In this document: positions 3,409 through 38,067 of the stretch, one piece after another | Layout of the letters: the number at the start of each line of letters is the position of its first letter | Numbering within the stretch: position 1 is the stretch's first letter | From: Simkaniaceae bacterium | GTDB lineage: Bacteria; Chlamydiota; Chlamydiia; Chlamydiales; Simkaniaceae | DNA length: 46,640 bases | Reading direction: 5' to 3' | NCBI GenBank assembly: GCA_050248615.1 | Contig: JBFWSA010000018.1 | Location: 1 to 46,640 of the forward strand | Translations under genes and position numbers: made by a program | Notes under the pieces: generated by a model | Seen by the model: the letters and a program-made list of their open reading frames with translations, nothing else | Database searches by the model: none | Told to the model about the DNA's origin: nothing

Positions 3409-3572
3409 TATACCCAAACAACTTCAAAAATTTTATTTTTGGCTGCACCAAGGCAACGCAATTTGCCGATCATAAATGACCTCATATTTTTAATATTAGG
3501 TCATTTATGATCGATAAATTTCGATAGCTTTCGTGCTCATACCAATCCCAATTTTGAAATTGTTTGGATATA
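3409..3572. repeat. Palindromic element family A, full length (164 bp), diverged
   Basis: TATACCCAAACAACTTCAAAA...TTTTGAAATTGTTTGGATATA termini; central hairpin AAATGACC..GGTCATTT; aligns with 9309-9472. Confidence 0.9.
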
Positions 3573-3666
3573 GATGAATTAATTAGAATATAGAATAAGT
3601 TCATATTAAGCCGATTCTGATTAAGCTCTCCCTTAAAAATGATTATATTTTTTTTTATTTTTTGAG

Positions 3667-3830
3667 TATACTAAAATAACTGCAAAAGTTGGTTTTGGAC
3701 AAGCGCGAAAGCTTTCGGAATTCGTCGACCTTAAGTGACCTAATATTAGAAATATGAGATCACTTAAGATCGGCAAATTATGGTGCTTTGGCGCAGTCGA
3801 AAATCCAACTTTTGCAGTTATTTTAGTATA
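3667..3830. repeat. Palindromic element family A, full length (164 bp), opposite orientation
   Basis: TATACTAAAATAACTGCAAAAGTTGG...CCAACTTTTGCAGTTATTTTAGTATA; reverse complement aligns with 9309-9472. Confidence 0.9.
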
Positions 3831-3979
3831 CATTATCCTTTTGACACAGGTTGAAAAAAGAGTGGTAAAGATGCAAAAGAGACTGAAATTAAAAAACATC
3901 TTTAATATGAGATGGATTCATAGGATGATTTTTTGGAAAAGGCTGAATCTGAGAAAGATAAACGGACGATCCTTAATAA

Positions 3980-4140
3980 AAACCTATCCTAATAAATCAT
4001 TTCTAATCTTTTTTGTGTTTTCACGATCTTTAGAACCTTCATTTTTCGGTCTTATCATCCGATAATGCCCTCAAATGCAGTTCCTAAATCTCCAAGAAAA
4101 CACATAAAAATCCCCAGAATTGATTTATTAGGATAGCTTC
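3980..4140. repeat. Palindromic element family C variant (161 bp)
   Basis: Terminal inverted repeats AAACCTATCCTAATAAATCA / TGATTTATTAGGATAGCTTC, flanked by AA on both sides. Confidence 0.7.
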
Positions 4141-4300
4141 AACTTTGAAAATTAGAACTAAACATTAGAATATTCAAGGATATTGGAATCTCGCGCCATA
4201 TTAATCACAAGAGATTTTTTCTTCATAAGTGAAATGGTTGCAGCATTTAGAAAAAACTTAAGCAACAAATTTTAATGCATTAGCTCTGCTTTCTATGCTA

Positions 4301-4335
4301 TATACTCAAACAACTTCAAAAGTTGTTTGAGTATA
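4301..4335. repeat. Family A minimal 35-bp derivative
   Basis: TATACTCAAACAACTTCAAAAGTTGTTTGAGTATA, termini only, 1 nt before the ATG at 4337. Confidence 0.9.
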
Positions 4336-4336
4336 G

Positions 4337-6454: not shown

Positions 6455-6630
6455 TCAGGGAAGCAAAATAGAAGGTCAGAAAGAAAAGAATCAATAGGGC
6501 AAAAAGTAAAACGACAACTCTTTTATTCACTTTTCTAGGTTTCATGAAATACTGGATAGGTTCATCTATTGCCTTTTTCTAGAGTTACTTGATAAAATAT
6601 CATCGCTTCAAAATTAAATGAAGGGCTTTT

Positions 6631-9237: not shown

Positions 9238-9566
9238 AGAGGGTGTTTAAAAATTCATTCCAGCATTAATGAAAAGGATCTTTTCCCCTAGGAAATCCGT
9301 TTTCGACCTATACTCAAACAACTTCAAAAGTTGGATTTTCGGCTGTGCCAAAGCACCGTAATTCGTCGATCTTAAATGACCTCATATTTCTAATATTAGG
9401 TCATTTAAGATCGACGAATTCCGAAAGCTTTCGCGCTAGCCCAAAACCAACTTTTGAAGTTGTTTGAGTATACACAAACTTTCCTAAGTTTGCTCCGGTC
9501 TCCAAACAGATCCTCTAGGAAAAAATCTCACTTTTCAATGCTGAAAGCAATATTTAAACACCCTCT
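9238..9566. mobile_element. Palindromic element family B (MITE-like) carrying a nested family A copy
   Basis: Perfect 14-bp terminal inverted repeat AGAGGGTGTTTAAA / TTTAAACACCCTCT plus symmetric inner arms (CAGCATT..CTAGG). Confidence 0.8.
9309..9472. repeat. Palindromic element family A, full length (164 bp), best-conserved copy
   Basis: 26-bp perfect terminal inverted repeat TATACTCAAACAACTTCAAAAGTTGG; inner stem AATTCGTCGATCTTAAATGACCT / AGGTCATTTAAGATCGACGAATT. Confidence 0.95.
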
Positions 9567-10749
9567 AAAAACCCCAAGAGAGTCCAAAACCTGTATAAGA
9601 GGTGCGATCTTTGAAGAACTGTCCTTCGGAGTATCCTCTATGGTAATCGACAAAAAGACGCATTTTGCGTCCCACCCCTTGGAGTTTACTCCACTCATAT
9701 CCTGCCATATAGGTTCCATCTAGGTTCCAGTGATTGACTTGCCAGTTCCTGATGTAGATAGCTAAGAAAGCTGTCCCATAGAGCTTATGGTAAAAACTCT
9801 TGTATCCTAAGAGGCGGACTTCTCCTCCCCATTCGATGTAGAGAGGAGGGGTGATGGGGTAGGTCTTATCACTATGAAAAACCCAGCCCGGCCCTACATA
9901 AAGACGAAGGGCGCTATTCACCTGATAAGAGATAAAAAAGTCGATGGCTTCCATGCTGGGATTCACCCGTTCGACTCCCGGATTATGCACAAGATATTCA
10001 TCTCCTAAGTGGGAGGAAACATGGTAAACCCTTAACCGAAAAGCCCATTTATCAACAGCATAGCTGAGGGGAAAACCAACCAAATAGTCGGTATTGATCA
10101 ACTCGGAAATCTCTCCATTATAATGGACCCCCATCTTAAATACTGACCAGATCCCCGCTTGAATATCGATCTGAAGATCTCCCCGCCAAGGGAAAACATT
10201 ACGCCATCGAAAAATGGGAAAGTCATCTCCTAGGGATACTGCTATCGACTTGGTACCCATGATATGATCCCCAATATGGTAAGCAGCTGAATAGATCGTT
10301 TCACGGGGATTCGCAACCATCGGAGCATATAAAACCGTTTGCTGCGGAAACCAGATCCCTTTGATTTGGGGCTTCACCTCGCGTTTTTCAATCTTTTCTA
10401 ACTTTTTCTCAGGGAATTTTTCAACTGGAGTAACCGATTTGACCTCAGGAACATCCTTCACAAAGCGAATAATACTGTTGCGAATAAGGGCATTTTTGGG
10501 GAGGTTGTAAAGATAGACATCCCCATTTTCAACATAAACAAGAACATCAAACTCATAGTAATGGGAATTCACCAAGGCTTGGATATATCCCTCAAGATAA
10601 GCATCTTCTTCTTGAGATAAGTGCTCTTTTGGAATACTATCTGTTCGCGTGGGAGGTGCAGCAGCAATTTCCCCATCCTCTTGAGCAGAAAGGGATAGGA
10701 GCCAAACCAAGCATAAGGAAATGATGAGTGTAAATTTCTTTATATTCAT
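9565..10749 (-). CDS. DUF1207 family exported, probable outer-membrane protein
   Basis: Signal peptide, YHVSSHLGDEYL motif, aromatic-rich strands, C-terminal Phe (GFGLSWGF). Confidence 0.85.
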   Translation of the reverse strand: MNIKKFTLIISLCLVWLLSLSAQEDGEIAAAPPTRTDSIPKEHLSQEEDAYLEGYIQALVNSHYYEFDVLVYVENGDVYLYNLPKNALIRNSIIRFVKDVPEVKSVTPVEKFPEKKLEKIEKREVKPQIKGIWFPQQTVLYAPMVANPRETIYSAAYHIGDHIMGTKSIAVSLGDDFPIFRWRNVFPWRGDLQIDIQAGIWSVFKMGVHYNGEISELINTDYLVGFPLSYAVDKWAFRLRVYHVSSHLGDEYLVHNPGVERVNPSMEAIDFFISYQVNSALRLYVGPGWVFHSDKTYPITPPLYIEWGGEVRLLGYKSFYHKLYGTAFLAIYIRNWQVNHWNLDGTYMAGYEWSKLQGVGRKMRLFVDYHRGYSEGQFFKDRTSYTGFGLSWGF

Positions 10750-10896: not shown

Positions 10897-11256
10897 ATGC
10901 CACTTAGTCCAGAAGAAGATTTAAGCTATCAACTCAGAAAGCAAGAGCAAGAAATCCACGGCAACTTGTTTATGCTCAATCAACTTTTCAACCTTTGCTG
11001 CAGTGCTGCACTGACAGTCGAGGAAATACGGAAAAAAGCAGAGCCTATTTTAGTCAAACTCCAAAAATCTAATCCCCTTGTTGCAAAAGAGATTCGTGAA
11101 ATTTTAGGATGTGGAGACCAAACCAAGGTGCAGGCGTATTTTGAACAGGAAAAAGAGCAACTCATCCACACCCTTTCTACCGAAATTCAGCAGCATAAAG
11201 GGATCAATAGGAGTATCAACAAAGAGAAGACAAACCAACAACCGACCGATTCTTGA
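10897..11256 (+). CDS. Hypothetical protein (119 aa)
   Basis: ORF with upstream AGGGGG RBS-like sequence; its stop overlaps a repeat terminus. Confidence 0.65.
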   Translation: MPLSPEEDLSYQLRKQEQEIHGNLFMLNQLFNLCCSAALTVEEIRKKAEPILVKLQKSNPLVAKEIREILGCGDQTKVQAYFEQEKEQLIHTLSTEIQQHKGINRSINKEKTNQQPTDS

Positions 11257-11403
11257 ACCTATCCCGAATTAAAATCATTTTTTTATTTCAGTCTTTTTGA
11301 GATCTGTCCTTCTTCTATACTCAAACAACTTCAAAAGTTGGATTTTCGACTGTGCCAAAAATCCAACTTTTGAAGTTGTTTGAGTATAATTCGGGATAGG
11401 TTC
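11255..11403. repeat. Palindromic element family C (partly deleted) carrying a nested family A copy
   Basis: Terminal inverted repeat GAACCTATCCCGAATT / AATTCGGGATAGGTTC flanked by TT on both sides. Confidence 0.85.
11316..11388. repeat. Family A internally deleted copy (73 bp)
   Basis: Both termini intact, centre missing, junction at GCCAAAA. Confidence 0.92.
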
Positions 11404-11492: not shown

Positions 11493-12773
11493 ATGGAAGC
11501 ATTCAAATACCATCCCCATCCTAGACCTTACTACCCCTGGGTCATTTGGATCTTATGTATCCTTTTCATTTTTTATAATTACATCATTCAATTTGCCGCT
11601 CTATTCATCAATATTCCTCTGCACACAAAGACTGTCGCTAATGTGGTTAATATCGCTCATCTTTTTGACCCTTATGCACTCACAGCCTTTCTTCTCCAAA
11701 TTCCTGTCGCTTTGCTCATTGACAAATATGGGCCCAGAAAAACCACCTCTTTAGCGATTGTCATCACAGGTTTGGGTGCTATTCTTTTTGGGTTTAGTAC
11801 CTCAATGGTAGAAATAGGGATCGCTGTAGCCATTTTTGGCGTAGGAAGTACCGTAACAATTGTAAATGCTCTTAAACTTGCCTCCAATTGGTTTCTCCCC
11901 TCCCGTTTTGCTGTCCTTGTCGGACTAACCATGACAGCCGCAGCTCTTGGAGCTGCTGTTGGGCAACCTCTAGCTCACACGATTATTCAAACCCTGGGTT
12001 GGCGTCAGTTAATGGTTAACTTAGGGATCATCGGAATCGTCTATGCCCTTCTTTTCTTTAGTATCGTTAGAGAAAATGCCCTAGGGGCCCGTTATTCCGT
12101 CTATCCCTCAAAATTATTGATTCCCTATCGGGTAGCCTTAAAAAAAGTATTCAAAAATCCCCAAAATTATCTCGTAGCCCTCTTTTTTGGTCTAGCCATG
12201 AGCCCTTGGGTCTCTTATTTTGGCGTGTGGCATATCCCCTTCTTTCAAACGACCTATCATGTTTCTCATCAGGAAGCCTTCATCGTAAATGTGATCAATG
12301 TTATCGCTTTTGGAGTGGGTGCTCCCTTTTTTGGTTGGATCTCAACCCGTCATAAAAGCCGCAAACGGTTTATGTTCTTAGGCATTATCATCGCTCTTAT
12401 TCTCAATGGTTGCACGATTTATGTTCCCTCTATTCCTTTCCCTGTTGTCGGAATTTTGACCTCTCTTTCTGGGTTCTTTATCAGTGCCTCTACCCTCAGT
12501 TATGCAATGAGTGCCGAAAAAAATAATCCGACTGCTTATGCAAGTGTCTTTGCCCTTCTTTATGTTTCAGCCCTTTTCTTTAGAATGATTCTGGATCGGG
12601 TCATTGGATACATTTTCACCTCTGCTCTTCAGTCGAGAAATGTGCAAAATTTTGAAGACATCACGATCAATGATTACCAAACGTCTCTTGTCATCGTTCC
12701 TATTGTTTTAATTTTGTCCTTATTAGTTCTTTTCTTCATCAAAGAGACGCATGCGGAGCCATCCTATGAATAG
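11493..12773 (+). CDS. MFS transporter, Pht-like (paralog 1)
   Basis: 12-TM pattern, QIPVALLIDKYGPRK (MFS motif A), SNWF, shared PHPRPYYPWVIW and FFIKETHA ends. Confidence 0.9.
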   Translation: MEAFKYHPHPRPYYPWVIWILCILFIFYNYIIQFAALFINIPLHTKTVANVVNIAHLFDPYALTAFLLQIPVALLIDKYGPRKTTSLAIVITGLGAILFGFSTSMVEIGIAVAIFGVGSTVTIVNALKLASNWFLPSRFAVLVGLTMTAAALGAAVGQPLAHTIIQTLGWRQLMVNLGIIGIVYALLFFSIVRENALGARYSVYPSKLLIPYRVALKKVFKNPQNYLVALFFGLAMSPWVSYFGVWHIPFFQTTYHVSHQEAFIVNVINVIAFGVGAPFFGWISTRHKSRKRFMFLGIIIALILNGCTIYVPSIPFPVVGILTSLSGFFISASTLSYAMSAEKNNPTAYASVFALLYVSALFFRMILDRVIGYIFTSALQSRNVQNFEDITINDYQTSLVIVPIVLILSLLVLFFIKETHAEPSYE

Positions 12774-14049
12774 TCCAAAACCTACTTTTGACCCCCATCC
12801 TCGTCCCTATTATCCTTGGGTCATTTGGTTACTCAGTGTGATTTTAATCTTTTACAAATTCATTTTGAAAGCGGGGACCTATACCATTGTAAAAGCTCTC
12901 GTTCAAGAACACATTCTTCACCTTGAAAACACTTCGACTTTTGTGGACTCTTCCTTTTATGCTGTGATTATTTTCCAGCTTCCCATTGCTTTTCTTGTCG
13001 ACCGCTTTGGTCCCCGAAGGATGACAAGCTTAGGCCTACTCATCGCAGCTGTTGGCGCTATTATCATGGGTGTAGGTTACTTTCCTGCTTTTCGCGTAAT
13101 CGCCCTCATTTTGATGGGAGCTGGAGGAAGCATTGCAATGATCAATGCTTTAAAACTGATCTCAAATTGGTTTCATCCCAAAGAGTTTGCCTTTATGACA
13201 GGCCTCACCGTCATGGTAGGGATCTTAGGAGCTAGCATAGGCTACCCTGCCACTCTTAAATTAGTGGAAGCCTTCGGGTGGCGACAAAGCATGATTGACT
13301 ATGGAATCATCGGGATCCTTTATGCACTCCTTTTCTTTCTCGTCATCCGTGATTCTGAACCCGGTGCCCGCTACAATATCAACCCTCCCACAGAAACCCC
13401 TTTATGGGATGCCATCAAAAAAGCCCTATCGAAATGGGACAATTGGGTGATCGCCCTTTATTTTGCGTTTATTGCCACCCCTTGGTCTACTTTTCTAGGG
13501 ATCTGGCAAGTCCCCTTTCTAGAAGCCACCCATCAAATAAGTAAAAAGAGTGCGGTAATCATCAACACATTGAGTATCGTCGGGTTTGCCATTGGTGCCC
13601 CCCTTCTAGGATGGCTCTCAACCCGCTTGAGACGGAGAAAGCCCTTTCTTTTTATTGGACCTCTTGCAGGACTCGTCTTAATCTTGATTAAGATTTATTG
13701 CCCAGGACTTCCCCCTTCCTTTCTCATGATCATCAGCATTCTTTCCTCCTTTTTCATGGGTGTCTATATCTTAGCCTATGTTGTCATCCATGAAAAAAAC
13801 TTACCTCTGATCACCGCTACCGTCATCGGCATGATTTTAGTTGTGGCTGCTATTGTCCATATTATCAATGATCATCTCATCAACGCTGCCATTACCTCTT
13901 CTAATGGATCTTTTGAAAGTGCAGATACAATTTCTTATGCAACCTATGCAAAGGCATTTATTTTCATCCCTCTCTCGCTTGCTTTATCGATCGTATGCGC
14001 TTTCTTTATCAAAGAAACCCATGCCAAGCAAACGTTCGAGGAAACCTAA
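12766..14049 (+). CDS. MFS transporter, Pht-like (paralog 2)
   Basis: QLPIAFLVDRFGPRR, same terminal motifs; ATG at 12766 overlaps the upstream gene end (ORF track start 12751). Confidence 0.9.
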   Translation: MNSPKPTFDPHPRPYYPWVIWLLSVILIFYKFILKAGTYTIVKALVQEHILHLENTSTFVDSSFYAVIIFQLPIAFLVDRFGPRRMTSLGLLIAAVGAIIMGVGYFPAFRVIALILMGAGGSIAMINALKLISNWFHPKEFAFMTGLTVMVGILGASIGYPATLKLVEAFGWRQSMIDYGIIGILYALLFFLVIRDSEPGARYNINPPTETPLWDAIKKALSKWDNWVIALYFAFIATPWSTFLGIWQVPFLEATHQISKKSAVIINTLSIVGFAIGAPLLGWLSTRLRRRKPFLFIGPLAGLVLILIKIYCPGLPPSFLMIISILSSFFMGVYILAYVVIHEKNLPLITATVIGMILVVAAIVHIINDHLINAAITSSNGSFESADTISYATYAKAFIFIPLSLALSIVCAFFIKETHAKQTFEET

Positions 14050-14052
14050 AAA

Positions 14053-15360
14053 ATGGCTGTCCGTAAGCCTGAGCCATTAAAACCTTTTCTCCCTCATCCG
14101 AGACCTTACTACCCTTGGGTCATTTGGTTTATGGGCGTCTTGTTTCAATTTTATCAAACCTCACTCCTCTACACGCCAGGTATTTTAACGCTGCAACTCC
14201 TTAAAACATTTGACATCACTTCCGCGCAATTGGGACTATTAGCAGCGCTCGGTGTCTACCCCTTTCTGTTTTTTCAATTTCCCATTGGCATCTTAATCGA
14301 CAAATACGGCACAAGGCTGATCACAACAATCGGCATTACAACCGTTGCTTTTGGAGCGTTCTTATTTGGAGGAAGTCCTACCATCATCTATGCCTATATG
14401 GGACAGATTTTGATTGGGATTGGAGCGAGTGTTTCTCTCGTTAATATTGTCAAAATTCTCTCCAACTTCTTTCATCCGAAACGATTCGCCTTCATGCTGG
14501 GACTAACCTTTGCTCTTGGCATGCTGGGAGTCTTTTTTGGAGAAATTTTTATCTCTTATTTCGTGGAAAGACTCAGTTGGCGCATGACCATTATCGACTT
14601 AGGTATTCTTGGAATCATTTTTGCCCTTTTCTTTTTTGCCGTTATGAGAGATGACATTCCGGGCGCTAAATACAATATGAATCCTCAAACCCGAGAGCCC
14701 CTCAGTTTATGCTTAAAAAGATTTCTCAAAAAGAAACAAACCTGGGTCCTTTGCCTTTTCTGCGCCTTTTGCTTAGCTCCTTTCCCTGTCTTCAGTGGAA
14801 CCTGGGGCGTTTCCTTTTTGCGTAGCACGTATCACATCTCTTTAGAAACAGCAATTTATGTGCACTCCTCCGCATTTTTTAGTGGGGCCCTTTTTGCCCC
14901 CCTTTTTGGCTATCTCTCAACCCGCTTTAAATGCAGAAAACACTACTTAGTTTTAGGGACCTTTTTTGCCGCCTCATTCATCTCAGTCATCCTGTTCCAC
15001 CATCACAGCTCGATCACCTGGCTGACTCTTTTTTATATCGGTTATGGAATCACCATTGCGACCTTCCCTATTGTTTATACAGTCATTCATGAACAAAATG
15101 TTCCCCGCATTACAGCTAGCTCGATTGCCCTCATTAACAGTTTTTTTGCCCTTTTTGGTGCAACAGGAGATCAGTTGATTGGATTCTTCTTAAACTTTAA
15201 TTGGTACAGTATTGTCGCAAAAGGGGTTCAGGCCATCCCTCCTGATTCTTTCAAAGCAGCTCTGACACGTGTACCCATCTGGCTAAGCCTTGCCTTTATC
15301 ACAGCCTTTTTTATAAAAGAAACTCATGCAAAACAAAAGATCACCGAGCCCAAAATATGA
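14053..15360 (+). CDS. MFS transporter, Pht-like (paralog 3)
   Basis: QFPIGILIDKYGTR, same terminal motifs. Confidence 0.9.
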   Translation: MAVRKPEPLKPFLPHPRPYYPWVIWFMGVLFQFYQTSLLYTPGILTLQLLKTFDITSAQLGLLAALGVYPFLFFQFPIGILIDKYGTRLITTIGITTVAFGAFLFGGSPTIIYAYMGQILIGIGASVSLVNIVKILSNFFHPKRFAFMLGLTFALGMLGVFFGEIFISYFVERLSWRMTIIDLGILGIIFALFFFAVMRDDIPGAKYNMNPQTREPLSLCLKRFLKKKQTWVLCLFCAFCLAPFPVFSGTWGVSFLRSTYHISLETAIYVHSSAFFSGALFAPLFGYLSTRFKCRKHYLVLGTFFAASFISVILFHHHSSITWLTLFYIGYGITIATFPIVYTVIHEQNVPRITASSIALINSFFALFGATGDQLIGFFLNFNWYSIVAKGVQAIPPDSFKAALTRVPIWLSLAFITAFFIKETHAKQKITEPKI

Positions 15361-16632
15361 GTATAGAAAGCCAGCCTAAACCCTTTATGCTCCACCCCCG
15401 CAAGCTTTATGCCTCATTAATTGGGATTCTAGGGGGACTCTTCGTTTTTACCAAACCATCCTGTTAGTCTCGTCTCGGGCGCTCTTCCCAGACTTAGCTG
15501 AAGCCTTTCACGTCTCTATGTCTGATCTCCAACTAATCTCTACAGGCTATTTTTATGCCTGCCTCCTATCCTTTATTCCAACCGGCATTCTCATCGATAA
15601 ATATGGGATCCGCCATCCCAATTCCCTGGAGATCATCATCTGCGCAATAGGGGCCCTTATCTTTGGATTAAGCCCCAATGTGACAGTCCCCTTTTACAGT
15701 CGTATCCTGATAGGAATTGGGGGATGCTTTTCTGTCTTGACCGTATTAAAGCTTTCATTAGAATAGTTCTCCCTTTTGTATTTTGCCTCTTTAAACGGCC
15801 TTGTGATGAGCTTTGGAATGGCTGGAGCCCTTTTCGGAGAAACCCCTTTCAATTCCCTTTTTAATCTTTTCAATTGGCGCATTACCTTTCTGGATCTTGC
15901 TCTCTTTGGGTTTATCTTAGCTCTTATTTATTGGACCTTTGTACGCGATAGAGCCTCCATCATGGCCTACCAAGTGCAGCCAACAACCCCTACCATCCCC
16001 TTCAAAAAAGCCCTTGTAAGTCTCTTTAAAAATAAGCAAAACTGGTTTCTCTTTTTCTACAGGGGCCTAGCCTGGACGACGATCACCGTTTTTGCCGGCT
16101 TTTGGGGCACTCCTTTCTTGAAAATCAAATAATACTACTTAGGAGATCAGCCCGCCCCCTTTGTGAATTCCATGATCTTTTTCGGCTTTGGCCTTAGTGG
16201 TCCTTTTTTTGGGTGGCTCTCCAATCATATTGGTAAACGCAAACCCCTTCTCTTCTGGGGAACTTTTGTCACCCTGATCCTCTTTTAATCGTCTACCTCC
16301 CAACAGTCCCCGATCCCTTGCTTGCGTTCTTTTTCTTTCTCCTTGGCTTTTCCGCAAGCACCTATGCCCTCTCCTTTGCCATGATTTACAAAATCAATCC
16401 CCCCATCATCGCAATAACCGCCTTAGGCTTTCTCAATGCAGGAAATGCCCTCTTTGGAGCTTTAGCCGATCCTCTTGTGGAGCTCTTTTTAGATATCAGC
16501 CCCGATTCCCCTGATCTCTTTAGCAGCGAAAACTTTCAACTAGCGCTTATGCGCCTCCCTATTTACCTCCTTTTGGCCCTCCTCTCTCTCTTTTTCATCA
16601 AAGAAACCCATTGCAAACACAACTATAAATAG
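15357..16632 (+). pseudogene. MFS transporter paralog 4, disrupted
   Basis: ATG overlapping the previous stop (MSIESQPKPFMLHPR); fragments IPTGILIDKYG, FAGFWGTPFL, FFIKETH; stops at 15764-66 and 16130-32 plus frameshifts. Confidence 0.88.
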
Positions 16633-16639
16633 GTATGAT
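16611..16639 (+). promoter_or_regulatory. Sigma66/70-type promoter of the tRNA
   Basis: TTGCAA-17 bp-TATGAT, 11 nt upstream of the tRNA; -35 box lies in the pseudogene 3' end. Confidence 0.65.
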
Positions 16640-16650
16640 CATTGCCCGAT

Positions 16651-16723
16651 GGGGCAATAGCTCAGTGGTTAGAGCAGCGGACTCATAATCCGTCGGTCCC
16701 TGGTTCAAGCCCAGGTTGCCCCA
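16651..16723 (+). tRNA. tRNA with CAU anticodon, most likely tRNA-Ile2 (lysidine)
   Basis: Full cloverleaf GGGGCAA/TTGCCCC-A; anticodon loop CTCATAA; G1-C72 pair excludes initiator; D and T arms resemble known Ile2 tRNAs; no encoded CCA. Confidence 0.93.
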
Positions 16724-16724
16724 C
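16677..16724 (+). repeat. attL: 48-bp tRNA 3' portion
   Basis: 47/48 identical to 20620-20667. Confidence 0.92.
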
Positions 16725-16922
16725 ATTTCTTCCGGAGTTTATCGCACTAAAAATGAGCAACTTGCGCAACATCTGCCAAATTGCCTAAAAGTGCGATTCC
16801 TCTCCGTGGAACATTTGTGGACCACTCGCTTACAACAATTGGCGATAAGCCCAAACGATCGAATTCTATTGCAAACTGTTGCAACGAAAAATGGCGTCAG
16901 TGTAAAATTTCACTTTTTCCCT

Positions 16923-17878
16923 ATGGAATCAGTGATGGAATTGATTTATTTTGATAATCCTGTAGTTAGATCGCTAATGGAGATTCCGCAAACTTGAAAT
17001 GATCTACATGATCCGTTTATAAAAATATTCAGACGAAGATCCCGACCGATTCAATCCTGTTATCTCTTCTTCGAATACATTGGGTTTACAAAGAAGAAAT
17101 TGAAAATTCCGACGGAACTGAAAAAACCAACTTTCGATCACCACGCAAAACTGGCAAAAGTGGATCCCGATATCTCAACGACAATCAATACCGAAGCGAT
17201 AGCCTTAATAGACGCAGATCTCGGTAGTATTGCCAGTGCGATCGATACCCACATAGCTGCGCAAATGCATACCTTGCAGACGACCTTCGAAGACTTGGTG
17301 ACTAGCCAAGAAAAGCGAGCCTCCTCTTTTAGGGCGCGCAAGAGCTACAAAAAGTCTTATTCGGCAACATTATCGACTATATGAAGACAGATTTTGCCGG
17401 CTTTGTAAAATACGCAACCCGATATTTGTCATGGAATATATTTTGCGGCGTTAACCCAATAGGACTTTCTCTCAAGCTGATTAGACAAAGACAACTGGGT
17501 TTCTGGCTCCAATTTTGGCAAGAGGGCATAGAGCTCCCGATAGGGAAAATCGTTGACGATCAGGTTGGCTACTATGACTTGGAATTCTGTTCGCATTTTA
17601 AAGAGTTTGAGGACATGGTTGATACTGAGATGCATACCCATTTGATTATGGGAAGGAAAGTAGATAGAGAGCTATGCCCTATTTCCGCGGTGGCTTATCC
17701 GCCTCATGATCAACAGGCTTTCGAAAAGCGTAATGCATTGATTCTAGGCTCGATTACAAATATCGAGACAAGTTTACAGAAGACGATTGCAAAACGCCCT
17801 GGAAAACTCTACCAACTAGATCCTAAAACACATCTCTTTCAAGAGGTCTTTGAGCCGATCTTCAAAATCGAACTATAG
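16923..17878 (+). pseudogene. Disrupted hypothetical gene (~318 codons)
   Basis: Frame from ATG 16923 reads through TGA 16995-97 into ORF 17100-17384; a 1-nt shift near 17331 joins it to ORF 17381-17878. Confidence 0.6.
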
Positions 17879-17983
17879 ATTTTGGTAGCGATGATCATGC
17901 CTACAGGCTCCTGAATGCTTGCGCTTCTTACATTGTAGAAGCTATCATCATAGCGCCGCCTAATATAAACCATTCGGTACTTC

Positions 17984-18709
17984 ATGAACATAATGAGAAA
18001 CGGCTTCAAGAAAATAGCAGAAAATAATGCTAAATCCATCGAAACAGATTTGGGAGATCTTCTGAATAAAATATGGGAAGTCGTTAGAGTGAGTTCTCAA
18101 GTAATCGATAATTGCTTGAAGGTTCAAGCTATTCTAAATAACAAAAAGCTACTAGACCTGCTTTTAATGAGCAGAAATTTATTATCTGACTGCTGCTGTT
18201 GTTTAGACTCTTTAGAACGGGGACATGAGCGCACTATTTTCAATAATCTTCGCATGATCTTGGAAGATTTAAGTGCTGTTATGAATGCTTCAGAAAATGA
18301 GAAAGCATATAACGCTCTTCAAGATGGCAAGCATCAAGCTTCTCAATCCGTTACTTTTGCCACCAAACGTTACCCTACCCATGAACTTGGACATACTTAC
18401 GGCTGGCTGTCAAAAATATCGCATCATATGGAGCAAGGACTAATAGTGCGGCAATGGATAAATCAAGATGGGTTAATGGCTCATATCAAACCTTATGATT
18501 CCAACCGACGTCAAGCACAATTAAATGCTCTGCTGACAATTATGCATTTTGCCCGTCTTACAGGAGAGATAGCCGAAGAACTTTGTCTAGATGAATTAGA
18601 GACCCCTTACTTCTGGACCAAAGAAAAGAAACGTCACCCATCTCCTAATATCAATATACTTGTGTCTGAAGTTGCAGAAAAAATCGATCAAATGATGTAC
18701 CCTTCCTAA
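17984..18709 (+). CDS. Hypothetical helical protein, DUF5677/HEPN-like signature
   Basis: LRMILE...YGWLSKISHH pattern; island location. Confidence 0.6.
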   Translation: MNIMRNGFKKIAENNAKSIETDLGDLLNKIWEVVRVSSQVIDNCLKVQAILNNKKLLDLLLMSRNLLSDCCCCLDSLERGHERTIFNNLRMILEDLSAVMNASENEKAYNALQDGKHQASQSVTFATKRYPTHELGHTYGWLSKISHHMEQGLIVRQWINQDGLMAHIKPYDSNRRQAQLNALLTIMHFARLTGEIAEELCLDELETPYFWTKEKKRHPSPNINILVSEVAEKIDQMMYPS

Positions 18710-18773
18710 TTGGGTACTCTCAAATGACCTTGAGAAGAATGGTTTATAAAGGGATAAGCCTCTAATCAGAATT

Positions 18774-19568
18774 CTAATGCTCTTTTCTACCGCTTGTAAC
18801 AAGTATCTTCAAAGATCGTTCAAAGCCGAGCTTTTTCAACTTACCAGATGGATCTTGAGACTCTAACTTAGACCATTCAGCAGGAGAAGCTTGATTCATC
18901 CAATTGGACAATTGCTTTTGAAATGTCTGCAGCCATTTTGGGTGCTGCTGAGAGAGGAAAGTAAATTCAGCAAGCGCTTGTTCGGAAAAATCCTCTAATT
19001 GCGTAGCTACATACCAGATCCCATAGAGATCCTTGAGCATCTTTGATGCACTCTTTCGCCTGGTAAAAGTAAGCCCTTTATGGAAGATCCATGCGCCAGG
19101 AGAAACAACCTTTCCCTCCTCTTCTGAATAGGTTTGAAATTCCATCGTCGTTTGCAGACTCAGTGTCAAGTAGCTCAATGGCTGAGCAACAATGCCCGCG
19201 ATCACGACATTTTTATTCTTATCATCTCGGGTAGCCGAATCAGTCAAAAACTCGATCTCTACTTCTACGCCATCGATCTCCTTCACAAAACTTTCGGTTG
19301 CAGGAATATCGACATCTTTGAAGACATGAGTAAATCCTGCTTCATTGAGATATTTGGCGATGTTCTTTTTAGAGATTTCAGGAACTCTTCTGGGAATCAA
19401 CGAATCAATATCACGCGTTCCAACAGGGAGATTCTCAAGCTTGGGATCGGCGAGGTAAAGCTTGTAAATGAAAAGAGCAAAACCACCTCCAATAACAACA
19501 AACTCTCGCCAGGGTCCCAGTGATTTTAAAAATTCTGAAATGATTTTATCTTCTTGAATTTGTTTCAT
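18774..19568 (-). CDS. Nucleotidyltransferase-fold toxin (GSU2403/AbiEii-like)
   Basis: VVIGGGFAL, TRDIDSL, IEFL, HK...KDLY motifs; translationally coupled to the upstream HTH gene. Confidence 0.82.
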   Translation of the reverse strand: MKQIQEDKIISEFLKSLGPWREFVVIGGGFALFIYKLYLADPKLENLPVGTRDIDSLIPRRVPEISKKNIAKYLNEAGFTHVFKDVDIPATESFVKEIDGVEVEIEFLTDSATRDDKNKNVVIAGIVAQPLSYLTLSLQTTMEFQTYSEEEGKVVSPGAWIFHKGLTFTRRKSASKMLKDLYGIWYVATQLEDFSEQALAEFTFLSQQHPKWLQTFQKQLSNWMNQASPAEWSKLESQDPSGKLKKLGFERSLKILVTSGRKEH

Positions 19569-20296
19569 TTGTTCTTAAAGCTTTTGTAGATGCGTTTCAG
19601 TTCAGGTACTCGCTGGGCTATAAATTCTGCTTGTTCTTGTCCTCGTAGAGGAAAGTGATAAAGATCTAAAAACACAAGAAGGAACGGACAAATGCCAATT
19701 TCTTTACCATCCTTCATATTTTGCTTGAGAAGCATTTTATAGTAAGGTTCGATCAACAAGACTTCATACCCTCTTTCTTGCGGTTCCAATTGCAGAGCGC
19801 TTTCCAATTTCGGTCTAATCGAAGGATCAAGGACATACAATTCTAATCCTTCCAGATTGGTGTTCTTAAGCTCAAATGCTTCAGCTGCTGAATGAAGGGC
19901 CAAGATTACGTTTTGCTCGAGTCCAGATTTCTTTAAAGCCTTGAACCACTCTGACTTTCCAGAAAGAGCGGAACGATATGTTCTGATTTTGCATTTTTTC
20001 ACGATGCTGTAGTGCTCTAACCAGCTTTCTAGAAGCTCTTTTGGTTTGTTAAAGGAAAACCTCTTGGAAGTTCTTACTCCTTCAACTTGCAGAAGTCCTT
20101 TCAATACCAGAATATTGAAAACACGTTGAACCAGACCCAGGCTTACTCCCGCTTCTTTAGCAACTTCTCTCAATGAAAAGCTTTCTTTGGAAAGTCCTTC
20201 TCGAAGCAGCCAATCAAGCACGAGAGAAGACTTATCAGCATAGACATTACCTTCTGCCGGATCTTCATTGGAACTTACTAGGAAACGACCTTTCAT
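19565..20296 (-). CDS. Winged-HTH antitoxin, type IV TA (AbiEi-like)
   Basis: SLREVAKEAGVSLGLVQRV HTH; LLESW; FLDLY..RGQEQAE C-terminal motif; GGAGGG RBS before ATG 20296. Confidence 0.8.
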   Translation of the reverse strand: MKGRFLVSSNEDPAEGNVYADKSSLVLDWLLREGLSKESFSLREVAKEAGVSLGLVQRVFNILVLKGLLQVEGVRTSKRFSFNKPKELLESWLEHYSIVKKCKIRTYRSALSGKSEWFKALKKSGLEQNVILALHSAAEAFELKNTNLEGLELYVLDPSIRPKLESALQLEPQERGYEVLLIEPYYKMLLKQNMKDGKEIGICPFLLVFLDLYHFPLRGQEQAEFIAQRVPELKRIYKSFKNK

Positions 20297-20309
20297 TTTA
20301 GCCCTCCAT

Positions 20310-20365
20310 CTGTTCATTATAATACACTGTTCAATATATATTGAACAGACAGAAATATTGAACAG
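20310..20365. promoter_or_regulatory. Probable autoregulatory operator of the TA operon
   Basis: Perfect 22-bp palindrome CTGTTCAATATATATTGAACAG (20327-20348) with extra half-sites 17 bp out on each side. Confidence 0.7.
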
Positions 20366-20619
20366 TTGAGTCGAAAATGGAAATGCCTCTCAAAAATTTG
20401 TTAACAATCTTATTTTTAACTGTTTAGATCCAATTAAACCATTCAGAATTTCCGAAAGGTTCAAAAGTCGCGACAGTGTGGCGACAATTTCCGTGGACCA
20501 TTTGTGGACTTCTGGCATGCAAAAAAGTGCGATAAATGACGATAGATCGCAATAGCTTGAAAGGGGCGCTTTCCTCTATGATTTCGGGGAGTTAGCTGCT
20601 AGGAAGTGGCGCGGGTGCT

Positions 20620-20669
20620 GCGGACTCATAATTCGTCGGTCCCTGGTTCAAGCCCAGGTTGCCCCACCA
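20620..20669 (+). repeat. attR: displaced tRNA 3' half ending in CCA
   Basis: GCGGACTCATAATTCGTCGGTCCCTGGTTCAAGCCCAGGTTGCCCCACCA; no 5' half upstream. Confidence 0.92.
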
Positions 20670-22081: not shown

Positions 22082-22107
22082 AAATGATTTTAATTCGGGA
22101 TAGGTTC
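22082..22107. repeat. Family C solo right terminus
   Basis: Exact 26-bp reverse complement of 11255-11280. Confidence 0.85.
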
Positions 22108-22213
22108 AGAGATTGAATCCAGAATTCGCATTTTTATCGATTTTCTTGTAGATTTTTGCTTTTCATTAGAAGACATTATCCAAGAGAAAAGATAAAAAAG
22201 GCCTAGCAATAAG

Positions 22214-24695: not shown

Positions 24696-25552
24696 ATGAG
24701 CAAGCATTAAAAGACAGAATTAAGGCCATTGCAGGTGAAAAAGGAATTCACTTTAATGAATGTTGGAAAAAACTTCTCCTAGAGAGATTCTTATTGCGCT
24801 TATCTCGCTCCGCTCATCACAAGAAATTTATTTTCAAAGGAGGTTTTCTCTTAGCCTATTTGATGGAAATAGGACGAGAAACAGTTGATCTCGACTTTCT
24901 ACTCACTCGCATGAACGCTAGTGAAAATGAGATAAAAAAAACCATGATAGACATTGTCAATACTGAATCAATGGATGGTTTTTTCTTCCATTATGAGGAC
25001 ATAACACCCTTAGAGCAACCCCATATGAAATATCCTGGCTACCGGATCAACTTCGAAGTAAAATTTGGTCGTATGAAGGATAGAGTTCATATTGATGTGG
25101 GAACAGGTGATATTGTAAGTCCTACTACTCATAATCTGCATCTCATTCAATATCGTAATAAACCTCTATTTGAAAGCCAAATTTCATTGCAAGTGTATCC
25201 ACCTGAAACCATTTTCGCAGAAAAACTTGAGTCTGTGATCTCCAAAGGCACGATCAATAGTCGCATGAAGGATTATCACGATTTGCTTCTACTCATACGT
25301 GACTCTCAATTAATTAATTTTAATAAACTGCATGAAGCAATAAAACAGACATTTTATCATCGAGGAACACCTTTTGAACTCATTGATTTTAGCAAACAAG
25401 GACTAAAACCCTTGGATAAGTTATGGCAGGCTCACCTTAAGAATTTGGGAAATGTGGCAGAAGGATTGAACCTCCCTCGAAATATTCAAGACGCCATTAT
25501 TGAGATCAATCAAGCTCTTTCCAAATTAACACTCGAATATTCTCTCTCTTAG
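24692..25552 (+). CDS. abiEii: AbiEii family nucleotidyltransferase toxin
   Basis: ERFLLRLS, FKGG, RETVDLD, AEKL, SRMKDYHD; ATGA overlap with abiEi. Confidence 0.92.
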   Translation: MNEQALKDRIKAIAGEKGIHFNECWKKLLLERFLLRLSRSAHHKKFIFKGGFLLAYLMEIGRETVDLDFLLTRMNASENEIKKTMIDIVNTESMDGFFFHYEDITPLEQPHMKYPGYRINFEVKFGRMKDRVHIDVGTGDIVSPTTHNLHLIQYRNKPLFESQISLQVYPPETIFAEKLESVISKGTINSRMKDYHDLLLLIRDSQLINFNKLHEAIKQTFYHRGTPFELIDFSKQGLKPLDKLWQAHLKNLGNVAEGLNLPRNIQDAIIEINQALSKLTLEYSLS

Positions 25553-25606
25553 ATTTGGGATGATTCATACGAATCTTTCTGTTTTCCTTCGACAAGTACT
25601 ATTATT

Positions 25607-26772: not shown

Positions 26773-27570
26773 ATGGATGAAAGTGCTGTTATTGTAATTC
26801 CTGCGCGGATGGCTTCCACGCGATTTCCTGATAAACCTCTGGCTTTGATTAAGGGCAAGACAATGATTGAACGGGTCTGGCACCTTGCTAAGAGGGTTAA
26901 GGGGGCAAACGAGGTCCTGATTGCAACCGATAGTCAAGATCTTAAAGCATTCGCAGAAGACTTTGGAGCCACCGTGATGCTGACGAGTCCCGAATGCTTG
27001 ACGGGTACAGATCGTGTAGCAGAAGTCTCCCGTTTATTGGATCAAAAACATACCATATTTTTTAGTTTTCAAGGGGACGCGGTACTGACCCCTCCATGGG
27101 TGATTGAGGGTGTTCTTCAAGCGATGCTCTCTGACCCCACTGTTCAAATAGCAACTCCTGCAGTCCATTTAACAGGGAAAGCTCTGACAGATTTTGTTAC
27201 CAGTAAACGTGGGGGAAGCTCAAGTGGCACAACGGTCACCTTTGATAAGAAGGGAAAAGCTCTCTATTTTTCCAAAGCCCTTATCCCCTACAATCGAGAC
27301 GAAATGCAGACAGATCGTATCATCTATCGTCATATTGGCCTCTATGGCTACAGAGCAGAAACGCTTCAACAACTAAGTCTTCTTCCTGAAGGGGTATTTG
27401 AAAAATCTGAAAAACTTGAACAACTGCGCGCTTTAGAAAACGGCATTTCGATTCAAGTCGTTCCTGTAGACTATAGAGGGAGAACGCATGGCTCTGTAGA
27501 TCGCCCCGAAGATATTTCCTTTGTTGAAAAGATCATCGAACTAGAAGGGGAACTCTTAGAGGGTGTTTAA
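26773..27570 (+). CDS. kdsB: 3-deoxy-manno-octulosonate cytidylyltransferase
   Basis: IPARMASTRFPDKPL, GTDR, QGD, HIGLYGY, LEQLRALENG. Confidence 0.95.
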   Translation: MDESAVIVIPARMASTRFPDKPLALIKGKTMIERVWHLAKRVKGANEVLIATDSQDLKAFAEDFGATVMLTSPECLTGTDRVAEVSRLLDQKHTIFFSFQGDAVLTPPWVIEGVLQAMLSDPTVQIATPAVHLTGKALTDFVTSKRGGSSSGTTVTFDKKGKALYFSKALIPYNRDEMQTDRIIYRHIGLYGYRAETLQQLSLLPEGVFEKSEKLEQLRALENGISIQVVPVDYRGRTHGSVDRPEDISFVEKIIELEGELLEGV

Positions 27571-27575
27571 AAGCC

Positions 27576-28861: not shown

Positions 28862-29025
28862 GAACCGATCCGGAATTAATGATATTTTTTCATTTCAGCT
28901 TCTTTGGCATCTTTACCACCCTTTTTTAAAGTCCTTGTCAATAGGACAATGTCCTCTAAAAAAAGGTGGCAAATCTGCTCAAACCTACAAGAAATCCAAT
29001 AAATCCTTTAATTCCGGATAGATTC
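28862..29025. repeat. Palindromic element family C, full length (164 bp)
   Basis: Terminal inverted repeats GAACCGATCCGGAATTAA / TTAATTCCGGATAGATTC, flanked by AT on both sides; inner stem CCACC..TTTT / AAAAGGTGG; left arm aligns with 11255-11310. Confidence 0.8.
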
Positions 29026-32126: not shown

Positions 32127-32128
32127 TA

Positions 32129-33702: not shown

Positions 33703-33740
33703 AGTGACTAGGGAGAAAGATAATTTCAGAATACCAGTTC

Positions 33741-34340
33741 TTACAAATCTGCAGAAGAGATAATGTTTGCCCCCGCTTCTTTCATTCTTTTGAGGGCCTT
33801 TTCTCCGTCTCCAATCGCCCGACAGGCATCTTTTATAACCGAGATGGGATAGCCCAATTTACGGGCATCTAAAACACTATAAAGGACACAGAAATCGGTA
33901 GCCAAACCGGCAATATAAAGCTCTGTGACCCCCTTTTGCTTGAGAAGGGTATCAAGCCCTGTCGACTTGATTCCCCCATTATCGAAAAAGGCACTATAGC
34001 TATCAATCATCCGATCGGTTCCTTTATAGATGTAATGGTGGATCCCATCACGCTCTAACTCTTTGACAATGTTCGAACCTGGAGTACGCTCCACGCAATG
34101 GTCGGGCCAAAGTTCTTGCTCCCTTCCATTGACTTCCACTGTCTCTCCCACTTTTTTTTGATGGGTACTTGCAAAGCTCACATGCCTTTGGGGATGCCAA
34201 TCCTGTGTTGCAATCACGACAGGGAATTTCTCCATGAACGTATTGATCAAGGGGGCCAAACCATCTCCCCCTTTAACCCCTAGGGGGCCTCCAGGCATAA
34301 AGTCATTTTGCAAATCGACAATCAGTAAGGCTCTAGTCAT
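33741..34340 (-). CDS. pncA: Nicotinamidase/pyrazinamidase
   Basis: VDLQNDF, QDWHP, WPDHCV, GLATDFCV. Confidence 0.95.
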   Translation of the reverse strand: MTRALLIVDLQNDFMPGGPLGVKGGDGLAPLINTFMEKFPVVIATQDWHPQRHVSFASTHQKKVGETVEVNGREQELWPDHCVERTPGSNIVKELERDGIHHYIYKGTDRMIDSYSAFFDNGGIKSTGLDTLLKQKGVTELYIAGLATDFCVLYSVLDARKLGYPISVIKDACRAIGDGEKALKRMKEAGANIISSADL

Positions 34341-35781: not shown

Positions 35782-36134
35782 GAGCTAGGAGTATAAGACT
35801 GTCCATGCGCTTCAAGCAATACTTTCCTGCGGGCTTCAAGCTTGTCGATTTCTTCTTGATAGCGGGCCGCAATTTCACGACTGGTATCTGCTTCATTCCA
35901 ATAGCGCCGTGCATCGATAAGATTTTGAGACTGAAACTGGAGACGGTCCCCTTGGTTTTGTGCCCATGCTGCATTGGCTAGCTCTTTATTCCGCAGGTCT
36001 GTGAGCTTAATGACCGCTTCATCGATATTGGCGACTTCCTGCTGCCATTGGCTAGGAGGGAGTTCCTTCACAAGGGCTATCCCACTCCCATAACATAAGA
36101 GCATCCCCAATAAAATCCACTTCAGTCTGCGCAT
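35778..36134 (-). CDS. Hypothetical exported coiled-coil protein
   Basis: Signal-like N-terminus; ATGA overlap with the pncB start. Confidence 0.7.
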   Translation of the reverse strand: MRRLKWILLGMLLCYGSGIALVKELPPSQWQQEVANIDEAVIKLTDLRNKELANAAWAQNQGDRLQFQSQNLIDARRYWNEADTSREIAARYQEEIDKLEARRKVLLEAHGQSYTPSS

Positions 36135-36209
36135 TGATTCTCCATTCTCAGATCCCTTTCCTCAATATTTACCCCATTTTCCTTTTGAAGAAAATTGAAA
36201 ACTGACTTA

Positions 36210-36300
36210 TAGACTCAAACAACTTCAAAAATGCGTTGTAGATGATGGTCAAAGGGCTCCCATTTGCCGCTCTTAAAGAAAATTTAGATCTTTTAATATC
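36210..36300. repeat. Degenerate family A left half
   Basis: TAGACTCAAACAACTTCAAAA followed by decayed ATTTGCCG.TCTTAAA...TTTTAATAT. Confidence 0.6.
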
Positions 36301-36390
36301 AAAACATTACGAAAGATTTCCTCCACATAACAAAACATTCCAAGAGGAGTTCGAAGCACAATATTCCTTCGATGTGTTAAACTCATCCCC

Positions 36391-37389
36391 ATGAAATATT
36401 GGATCTTTTTCTTACTTTTCACGCACTCTCTGTTTGCTTTTACCTTAAAAGAAAAGTTTAAAGAAGCAGAAGCAGGAACCTATGTGGTGACAGAACAAAA
36501 CCAGCTCACCTCACTCCTCCATCTCCATACGGTTTCTGAGGATAAGCTTCTTTTCGAGGAGATTAGTATCCCCTCTCATCAAATCCACCATGCAGACTGG
36601 AAAAAATGGGCAGAAAATGGGGCTCCAGGACATACCTCTTGGATTCTCTATGAGCTCGATCTCAACCAAAGCTTGATCACAGAGTGTTACTCGCTCACCC
36701 GTAAAGCTTGGGTTTCTACCCATGAAATGGATGCCTTTCTCCTCCCCCTTCTTACCCTCAATTTAAACCTCCTTTCCGAGGAGGAGCGGATTCAAAGGGG
36801 GGCAACCCCTGCACCGGGACAGGTGGGAAGGGGCCCTTGGGCTCCCCCACAAATCATCGAAGGAAAAAAGATCGATTCCCCTCAATATGATGTTTACACA
36901 GCCCTTTGGCCCTATGATGAGACCGATCTTTCCGGCAAATCTATTGTTCTCTATTTTGATAAACTGCATCCTCAATTCCCCTTTCCTTACTGGATGCAAG
37001 CACGAGATGGGGGGCTAAAATTTAAAATGCGAGCCGTAGATTCAGGAACCGGCATGTTTTCTCCGATCTCTGATATCCCTCGACGCGCCCCCTCATTTAC
37101 TGGAGGCATTAGACATGAGGAGGGGCAAGTCTCCCTCTTCCTCACGATTCCTACCTACTATAGCCAGTTAAAACTCTATGCTATTGACTTAACAGAAAAC
37201 CCCCGTTTGACCCATGCTATCCCCTTTGAAATAGAGCGTCATAAAGAAAGCGTCACCCTGTCGATTGCAGAAGAAAAACTTGCACCCATCTTTTCTAATG
37301 ACCATGAATATCTTTGGATTGTGGCATCAGAAAGCTCAGATGTTTTTGTAGAATCTCCCCATCTTTTTAAATGGACTTTAGAGAATTAA
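36391..37389 (+). CDS. Conserved chlamydial exported hypothetical protein
   Basis: Signal peptide; GAPGHTSW and FPFPYW motifs; position next to lepB. Confidence 0.75.
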   Translation: MKYWIFFLLFTHSLFAFTLKEKFKEAEAGTYVVTEQNQLTSLLHLHTVSEDKLLFEEISIPSHQIHHADWKKWAENGAPGHTSWILYELDLNQSLITECYSLTRKAWVSTHEMDAFLLPLLTLNLNLLSEEERIQRGATPAPGQVGRGPWAPPQIIEGKKIDSPQYDVYTALWPYDETDLSGKSIVLYFDKLHPQFPFPYWMQARDGGLKFKMRAVDSGTGMFSPISDIPRRAPSFTGGIRHEEGQVSLFLTIPTYYSQLKLYAIDLTENPRLTHAIPFEIERHKESVTLSIAEEKLAPIFSNDHEYLWIVASESSDVFVESPHLFKWTLEN

Positions 37390-37705
37390 TCTCCGAAGTA
37401 ACGAACGCCACTTGTGCAAAGTATTCGTGAGCCGTGCGCTCCGATTGGTTAGGAGGAGCCTCACTATCCAAATCATCCACATGAACCTCGCCCCGACGCA
37501 CTACCTCTACGACAAGATCTTCCAGCCGATTGTAAGCCAACTCAGATACCTCTTTAATCTGGTCCATCACATGGGAGATGTTATCCCTCCAATCCGCTAA
37601 ATCCAGGATAGTTGGAGGATCATTCAAGATCTCACTTAGCTGAAAAAGGAGTAATTGCAACTTAGCTTTAGCTGCTTCATCCTTAGGAGTTTCAGTCATA
37701 TTCAT
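37367..37705 (-). CDS. Hypothetical protein
   Basis: Acidic helical ORF; ATG at 37705 or 37699. Confidence 0.65.
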   Translation of the reverse strand: MNMTETPKDEAAKAKLQLLLFQLSEILNDPPTILDLADWRDNISHVMDQIKEVSELAYNRLEDLVVEVVRRGEVHVDDLDSEAPPNQSERTAHEYFAQVAFVTSEINSLKSI

Positions 37706-37902
37706 CCTTAATGCGCTGGCTATCAATAGGTGTAACAAAGTTCTCTATTCTCTGCAACTTAACCTATGAATCTATCCCGATAATCAATTTGTTGGGACTT
37801 TTAGAGATTTTATGTTGCTAAGATCACCAGCAATTCGAATCAAGTTGCCATGATCGAGCTGCCTTCTTTTCAAATTTATGACTTTATTTTTTATGAATGG
37901 TG

Positions 37903-38067
37903 TTAGAGCGTGTCACCAATTACACTGCGTTGCTTTAGCTCTCACCATGAAGAATTTCGTCGTTGCCCTGCTTCGACAACCCGCAAGGGGTTGCCTGCAT
38001 CGGACGCCTAGAACTTCTCTCATAGAGAGACCTCTTTCAACTTATTTTAATTGATGACACGCCCTAA
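37903..38067. mobile_element. Palindromic element family D (MITE-like, 165 bp)
   Basis: Terminal inverted repeats TTAGAGCGTGTCACCAATTA / TAATTGATGACACGCCCTAA (18/20); central hairpin CAACCC-GCAA-GGGGTTG. Confidence 0.8.

Follow-up and report, generated by a model that had tools for sequence, protein, structure and literature searches.

Palindromic elements of one length class in a Simkaniaceae genome as candidate modular MITEs with insertion-sequence ends

Why should palindromic intergenic elements with unrelated termini all measure nearly the same length? The question is raised by a 46,640-nucleotide contig of a Simkaniaceae bacterium (JBFWSA010000018.1, assembly GCA_050248615.1; hereafter the window, which is the whole of contig C18 of the analysed genome, G000), where a sequence-only reading had described four families, A to D, as non-autonomous structured elements of about 161–167 bp. 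On sequence evidence, these are mobile, gene-less type II MITEs (miniature inverted-repeat transposable elements), and as the account we think probable, we propose that they are modular, with a rod of ~112–125 bases set between two 20–26-base ends borrowed from insertion sequences (ISs) of the IS630, IS5, IS982 and ISAs1 families, and with the ends exchanged. The contig comes from an environmental chlamydia, its proteins including the DUF1207 and CT021 families, and the stretch is present in DNA sequencing runs of 4/4 studies, so the element cluster is no assembly artefact. Other genomes and loci are designated by G and L numbers. The full copies of A to D, with the sequences that host or adjoin them, are as follows.

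3409–3572, unstranded: older full copy of family A, 164 bp, IS630-type ends, TA duplication, 83% to the family representative
3667–3830, unstranded: full copy of family A, 164 bp, inverted relative to the copy at 3409
3980–4140, minus strand: full copy of family C, 161 bp, stable fold on the minus strand
9238–9566, unstranded: family B, IS5-type ends, TAA duplication, split by A at a TA hot spot; absent at the orthologous G001 site
9309–9472, unstranded: young full copy of family A within B, 164 bp; net insert 162 bp plus TA
28862–29025, minus strand: full copy of family C, 164 bp, with a duplication of 2 bp and, on the minus strand, a tandem G.A loop at 32 nt from the apex
37768–37811, unstranded: C end standing alone, unpaired, and not D's host
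37799–38106, unstranded: decayed element of a fifth family, hosting D (match at 37799–37862; right end read from the sequence at 38068–38106)
37903–38067, minus strand: full copy of family D, 165 bp, IS5-type ends, TA duplication, core common to F6 and the ISAs1-ended F7

The lengths first reported for these copies hold: three A copies of 164 bp, C copies of 164 and 161 bp, D of 165 bp, and B, which is 167 bp once the A insert is removed and one TA kept. Every named copy folds as a single rod, with a stability against shuffled sequence of z −6.8 for C and −9.0 for D. For the C element at 3980–4140, the representative of its family has tandem G.A loops at distances of 12 and 30 nt from the apex. 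"Family C" itself comprises several families with related cores. At 37768–38106, D is not nested within C: the C sequence there is a lone end, and the host of D is the decayed fifth-family element. No promoter- or terminator-like site was found in the block formed by B and its inserted A.

The size class extends across the genome. An inverted-repeat scan of G000 placed 141 of 350 pairs at spans of 160–179 bp, with smaller groups at 320–349 and 490–509 bp that correspond to two and three units, whereas a codon-block shuffle of the genome left 0 pairs in these three bins. The pairs sort into 37 clusters; 32 representatives recover 185 full copies in about 30 families, and elements and fragments together make up 2.1% of the genome and 17% of its intergenic DNA. 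A tight peak exists, with 158 of the 185 full copies spanning 158–170 bp, but the size of ~161–167 bp proposed for all families was drawn too narrowly, since family lengths run from 158 to 179 bp and short derivatives are common (among 97 A end pairs, 40 lie at 162–165 bp, 33 at 35–36 bp and 12 at 70–73 bp). Similarly, 184 of 185 copies lie outside open reading frames (ORFs) of at least 120 amino acids, but "all intergenic" is slightly too strong, as the last bases of B overlap a stop codon at 9565–9567. Clustering and nesting are real but not enriched: the 10 nested copies and the 34 touching another element (each of 185) are what the occupied 17% share of intergenic DNA predicts, and we rejected enriched nesting. 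In regions partly chosen for A hits, a peak of the same type appeared in G022 (15 pairs in 400 kb), G045 (13 in 231 kb), G109 (13 in 800 kb) and metagenome loci (28 such pairs in 80 loci); it was weak in the portions of G001, G024 and G053 that were covered. As to whether this is an already catalogued repeat, Rfam gave no match to the elements, a plasmid collection gave none for A or D at E 1, and the exact A end occurred in the species collection at 2 chlamydial loci only; 14 viral matches were judged not element-like. Two structures deserve separate mention: a 199-bp F7/F6 chimera (G000:C28:23452–23650), apparently formed by recombination between nested elements whose cores are homologous, and a partial A enclosed by concentric inverted repeats of 235, 320 and 550 bp, present in several copies (L020:2760–3308 and L022:2797–3347, G026).

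Are the elements mobile, and which enzymes would move them? In G001, a sister species of the same genus, 33 bases stand where the window has a 356-base gap containing B and A, so that the relative provides the empty site that mobility calls for; contigs of runs X2 and X5 also skip 162 bases at A's TA (joint 9311–9474), and these may derive from further copies of B. Target marks differ from one end type to another, in agreement with the matching IS: TA at A (40/41), a 2-bp duplication at C (26/30), TWA at B (4/5), a 6–7-bp duplication beside the AC ends of F4 (8/12) and a ~10-bp duplication at F7 (7–10 of 10 matches in 5/6). The elements are short, non-coding and multicopy, and they have the terminal inverted repeats, target-site duplications and empty site of type II MITEs; family A combines the TA duplication and IS630 ends of an IS630-derived MITE, and B, C and D have the ends and 2–3-bp duplications of the PF13340-bearing IS5 elements. 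For IS5 and ISAs1, the assignment uses the target and subgroup signatures usual for those families. The IS982 signatures follow PMC7335449 and the IS630/TA signature PMC2229807; here and below, statements on cited papers apply to the accessible portions of their text. Two further B copies (G000:C1:12649–13144 and C2:27979–28472) carry two inserts each, at the same two sites and from different families (F1 or A at a TA site, F6 or F5 at a CTAG site), so B offers target hot spots.

At the level of the termini, with end–IS pairs chosen by eye and transposase families assigned by Pfam, identity to transposase-bearing elements over the last 20 bases reaches 17 for A, B and C (R14), 18 for D, 19 for F6, 17 for F7 and F12, and 15 for F4 and F29. 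The partners are IS630 (L152) for A and F21, IS5 for B, C, D and F6, ISAs1 for F7, and IS982 for F4, F12 and F29; a search for ISs with the same termini, as the sequence-only reading had advised, thus led to IS630, IS5, IS982 and ISAs1 elements of Chlamydiales, found in G000 and in relatives. The similarity of A to D to autonomous ISs is confined to the ends (17–18 of 20 terminal bases, nothing inside) and, more generally, none of 18 IS interiors has anything in common with the elements beyond the ends, with R47 and R62 being type I elements that match IS982 over ~140 bases. Both A ends match only the right end of the sole L152 IS630 (17 versus 10) and both F21 ends its left end (16 versus 12), a pattern not expected from simple internal deletion. 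Judging by these ends, the IS630, IS5, IS982 and ISAs1 transposases very probably mobilise the MITEs in trans. No ~1-kb pair of A ends was found in G109 or G000, and IS1595 was not found in G000. It is very improbable, and for G000 largely refuted, that movement depends instead on a small nuclease whose gene sits in a longer autonomous form, inside its loop: the duplications vary with end type in agreement with the matching IS, long spans in G000 are nested copies or chance end pairs, and no rod with a gene in its loop was found there. Two ISs stand somewhat apart, namely an intact 296-aa IS5-type transposase (PF13737) with a 9-bp duplication and no matching MITE identified (G000:C9:40858–41925), and an IS630 within 67-bp inverted arms, one end of which is overlapped by a 125-bp hairpin (L110:1073–2433, G020).

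If the ends come from ISs, what do the interiors have in common? We compared cores with 25 bases trimmed per side, against a null that keeps the hairpin. The A, B, C and D cores are mutually unrelated (z −1.8 to 1.9), so a shared interior, one of the possibilities raised for these families, is not detectable. The other possibility, a non-autonomous body plan whose ends are swapped among transposases, fared better: the D core recurs under F6 (IS5) and ISAs1 ends (z 24–30), the A core under CTAG as well as TA ends (z 26) and the F1 core under three end types (z 14–18), and in G109 two unrelated cores are found between A ends, at 164 bp in both cases. Altogether, 52 representatives from 11 genomes form 14–18 core lineages.

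The length itself may have a source in IS982. Rods of 117–124 nt lie inside both ends of these ISs, starting ~20 bases in (10 elements, 7 sources), and in a 21-protein tree, from which three short translations were left out, all rod-bearing IS982 elements fall in one 100/100 clade, with a rod-less subclade nested within. Members of this chlamydial clade measure ~1,150 bp because they hold two such rods. Broken rod-bearing copies in G000 match the local families R47 (78–81%) and R62 (93%), each of which joins one IS982 end (left or right) and its rod to a second, inverted copy of the end, and 9 of 21 further model hits have an outer end pair, with spans of 146–161. Core homology to IS982 rods is found only for R47/R54/R39 and R51/R62 (z 28–37). 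Arithmetically, 117–120 + 2 × (21–25) = 159–170, and subtracting the IS-matching ends from A to D leaves an estimated 112–125, so a rod plus two ends would yield the shared element length. A 112–125-nt rod, one stable strand and a paired AGAT ~30 nt from the apex are matched unevenly among the four: all three in both C families of the window, length and strand only in B and D, and length only in A. It is the AGAT loop, at the same apex distance, that ties C to the IS982 rods. As the A, B and D cores lack clear IS982 homology and no rods were seen in the IS630 and IS5 loci, the extension to A to D is one that we infer. Nevertheless, a fixed rod of ~118 nt with an end on either side likely explains the shared size better than a free-standing size rule does, with the rod acting as a fixed module and the common length following from exchange of the ends around it. 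A copy of family A at L208:1415–1577 sits within the transposase of an IS982 that carries rods, interrupting it.

Two other origins of the length bear on the same observations. Independent families could have converged on a physical optimum of ~165 bp for pairing two ends in a transpososome, as the equal length of unrelated cores (A versus C) and a Yersinia element of ~168 bp (PMC2229807) would suggest; we find this improbable, since other bacterial MITEs measure 103–157 bp (PMC2229807, PMC3184786), the same optimum would be needed for five target types, 35- and 70–73-bp forms are common, and the strand asymmetry described below would be left unexplained. The second agrees with a modular build except in direction: hairpin MITE cores would be older, an ancestral IS982 would have captured two of them inside its ends, and the length would descend from an ancient rod family resembling enterobacterial ERIC or Rickettsia palindromic elements (RPEs). 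Core diversity among the MITEs (14–18 lineages) does exceed that of IS982 rods, the left and right rods of L208 and of L263 are unrelated, and a single tandem GA loop lies near the apex of Escherichia coli ERIC. Against this, a deep IS982 clade had the rods ancestrally, and ERIC, at 127 bp, does not score on either the apical profile (z 0.8) or the model; we regard the reversed order as unlikely.

Structurally, the rods are asymmetric in a consistent way. Purine–purine mismatches fall on one strand in 84% of cases versus 62% in the null, and G.T mismatches follow the same strand (194:105). In 12 non-A families, G.T exceeds A.C in consensuses (41:11) but not in private changes (60:53; p 0.002), which points to selection rather than mutation, with private purine–purine changes still skewed (43:22). 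Tandem GA/GA makes up 43% of 2×2 loops and never occurs on mixed strands in 26 families; GA loops recur ~12, 32, 44 and 53 nt from the centre, with a best period of 10.5 in a test that treats sites as independent (and is anti-conservative) and that cannot separate 10.5 from 11. A paired AGAT sits at ~±30 in 13 of 18 IS982 rods, and at ±26–37 in 10 of 52 families against a null mean of 1.3. Base pairing itself appears to be maintained, as 48 of 71 pairs in the A core change on both sides and two-sided compensated changes outnumber uncompensated ones 99:21. The 70–73-mers derive from either arm.

Does this fold act as RNA or as DNA? G.U and tandem G.A pairs are characteristic of RNA, and the inward-reading strand is the more stable one at 18/18 IS982 rods, although these rods are not independent. 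With an RNA role confined to IS982, transcripts running inward from either side would form a 55-bp rod, which RNase III would cut or which would stall transcription, the length and asymmetry of MITE cores being relics kept by arm-to-arm copying. RNase III is reported to cleave Correia transcripts (PMC10969869). Against such a role, the stable strand of MITE copies is random relative to flanking genes (31:32), which also leaves the earlier suggestion of selection as host RNA hairpins without support; moreover, divergent MITE families keep their GA loops while shifting them by one turn, and the same length is found in unrelated cores, A for instance. We therefore judge such an RNA role unlikely.

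With respect to replication, by contrast with transcription, 75 of 118 copies in G000 have their stable strand on the C-rich (inferred lagging) strand (75:43, p 0.004) regardless of gene direction, a bias found in 19 of 26 families and stronger in older copies (14:40 versus 24:29, p 0.044). Integron attC sites provide an analogy for strand bias only: they too are imperfect hairpins whose strands differ and whose folding is favoured on the lagging-strand template, but they are recombined by a tyrosine recombinase and have neither IS ends nor target duplication (PMC5371416). By that analogy, the bias in G000 would fit a loss of copies that fold on the lagging-strand template. For IS982 itself, no orientation bias is reported in PMC3971601.

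Mechanistically, we posit that a folded single strand would be completed by copying a neighbouring end onto its other arm, so that a new family would start with both ends alike and its length kept, and that arm-to-arm copying would later let the ends change in step. Fold-back completion beside an IS end, followed by such copying, is probably how new families of unchanged length arise. A single rod elsewhere in the genome, R49 (G000:C4:64812–64974), has as its outer 12–13 bases on one side the 3′ end of a tRNA-Leu and on the other side an inverted copy of it; this rod may have arisen by fold-back, with flanking DNA taken up as its ends. The least certain step is the upkeep of the rod: one DNA strand might fold during replication or transposition, placing the tandem G.A loops on one face, and presentation of this face to a host or transposase protein might favour amplification and so keep the rod, a proposal that we advance only tentatively. 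More doubtful is the specific form in which a ~118-nt single-strand folding module with helically phased G.A loops would be a transposition cis-element native to IS982 ends, acting as a replication-fork or protein-docking signal and carried between transposase families by MITEs through fold-back end capture; such MITEs would be a bacterial analogue of short interspersed elements (SINEs), which conserve a core while swapping ends.

Several observations weigh against the modular account and its DNA-level fold. Among the cores, A, B, C and D show no detectable mutual relation, nor are they clearly related to IS982 rods (best z 0.7 for A, 2.7 for B and 5.7 for D); no terminal rods were found in 29 IS630 or 30 IS5 loci, and no parent IS rod was found for A or D. 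A common apical motif was weak: in a leave-one-lineage-out test, 10 of 14 lineages were positive, at a mean z of 1.15, the A lineage was negative and ERIC did not reach significance. The covariance model that had been advised across families does not discriminate homology, since it scores any hairpin (the 73-bp A gets 40 bits). Among the ends, those of R4-type C (9/20 with L310) and of the CTAG families (9–14 of 20) match poorly, the F1/F8 match fails by an offset with only the first ~12 bases agreeing with L110, and most transposases in the G000 assembly are broken. As for the fold, the A and D representatives lack a tandem GA loop, A shows little strand bias, and the period test carries the limits given above. 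Finally, other genomes did not bear out the replication bias: they gave 19:12 (p 0.28), with G109 at 10:3 (one element there being counted twice) and G022 at 6:7. Nor do partial copies lean in the opposite direction (37:28).

The window also holds partial and collapsed elements.

3818–3930, unstranded: C-type element fragment
4245–4288, unstranded: single end of the ISAs1-ended family F7
4301–4335, unstranded: collapsed A element, 35 bp, 2 bases ahead of the next start codon
6547–6565, unstranded: lone C-type end
11255–11403, unstranded: C element with its core deleted, containing a 73-bp fold-back A (11316–11388)
22082–22191, unstranded: C-type end plus C-type core fragment
25549–25593, unstranded: fragment of family F1 (IS630-type ends)
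27558–27571, plus strand: lone B end, overlapping the kdsB stop
36210–36230, plus strand: lone A end

A lipase gene and the whole element cluster beside it (2196–4331) are absent at the orthologous place in G001; a MITE-flanked cassette around this gene was ruled out, as there is no left end at 2200–2340. Further along, three MFS transporter paralogues stand in tandem (11493–15360), and an island (15776–20667) between a tRNA (16651–16723) and its partial copy (20586–20666) carries an AbiEi-type regulator and nucleotidyltransferase pair at 18777–20317.

How do these elements compare with known ones? Earlier work has described hairpin MITEs, genomes with more than one family of them, and insertion of one into another (PMC2229807, PMC10969869, PMC3049150, PMC3184786, PMC4853749). 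Closest in kind are RUP with its partner IS630-Spn1 and the BOX/RUP/SPRITE clusters of Streptococcus pneumoniae, which are likewise short, AT-rich, intergenic hairpin MITEs with TA targets, IS630-like ends and mutual insertion (PMC2229807, PMC3049150), but RUP is 107 bp long with one family per partner, whereas here about 30 families and four transposase families share one length class, with cores found across end types. RPEs resemble them as several palindromic families of similar size (105–150 bp) in an intracellular bacterium; they are less uniform in length, no IS partners or target signatures are given for them in PMC10969869 or PMC2229807, and they often lie in frame within genes, as against 1/185 copies inside an ORF here. 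ERIC/IRU and Correia/NEMIS share the whole-length rod, TA ends, and long plus internally deleted forms, and E. coli ERIC, by our own comparison, the tandem GA loop near the apex; they differ in length (ERIC 127 bp, Correia/NEMIS 107/155 bp), and no end swapping is described for them in PMC2229807. No sequence match was found between our elements and the 127-bp ERIC/IRU consensus or Correia/NEMIS. The chlamydial IS982 elements have the AC ends, variable duplications and ~1-kb size of their family, the review of which (PMC7335449) makes no mention of MITEs or terminal rods in the text accessible and gives the transposition mechanism as unresolved. Our literature search returned no paper on such elements in Chlamydiota, on IS982 terminal rods or on cores common to several transposase families, although subscription papers lay mostly outside it and they or ISfinder could hold some. 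New here are the span of four transposase families, the arithmetic behind the length, the phasing of the GA loops, and the tests on transcription and replication.

The origin of hairpin MITEs such as ERIC and RPE and the upkeep of their long folds are treated as open questions in PMC2229807 and PMC3184786. With named transposase partners, an IS-borne source for the rod, a length arithmetic and a one-strand signature, origin and end switching in this little-studied class of selfish DNA, and the IS982 mechanism, become testable. Even if the rod is only a relic, the elements would still represent a large, undescribed MITE repertoire filling 17% of the intergenic DNA of this chlamydia.

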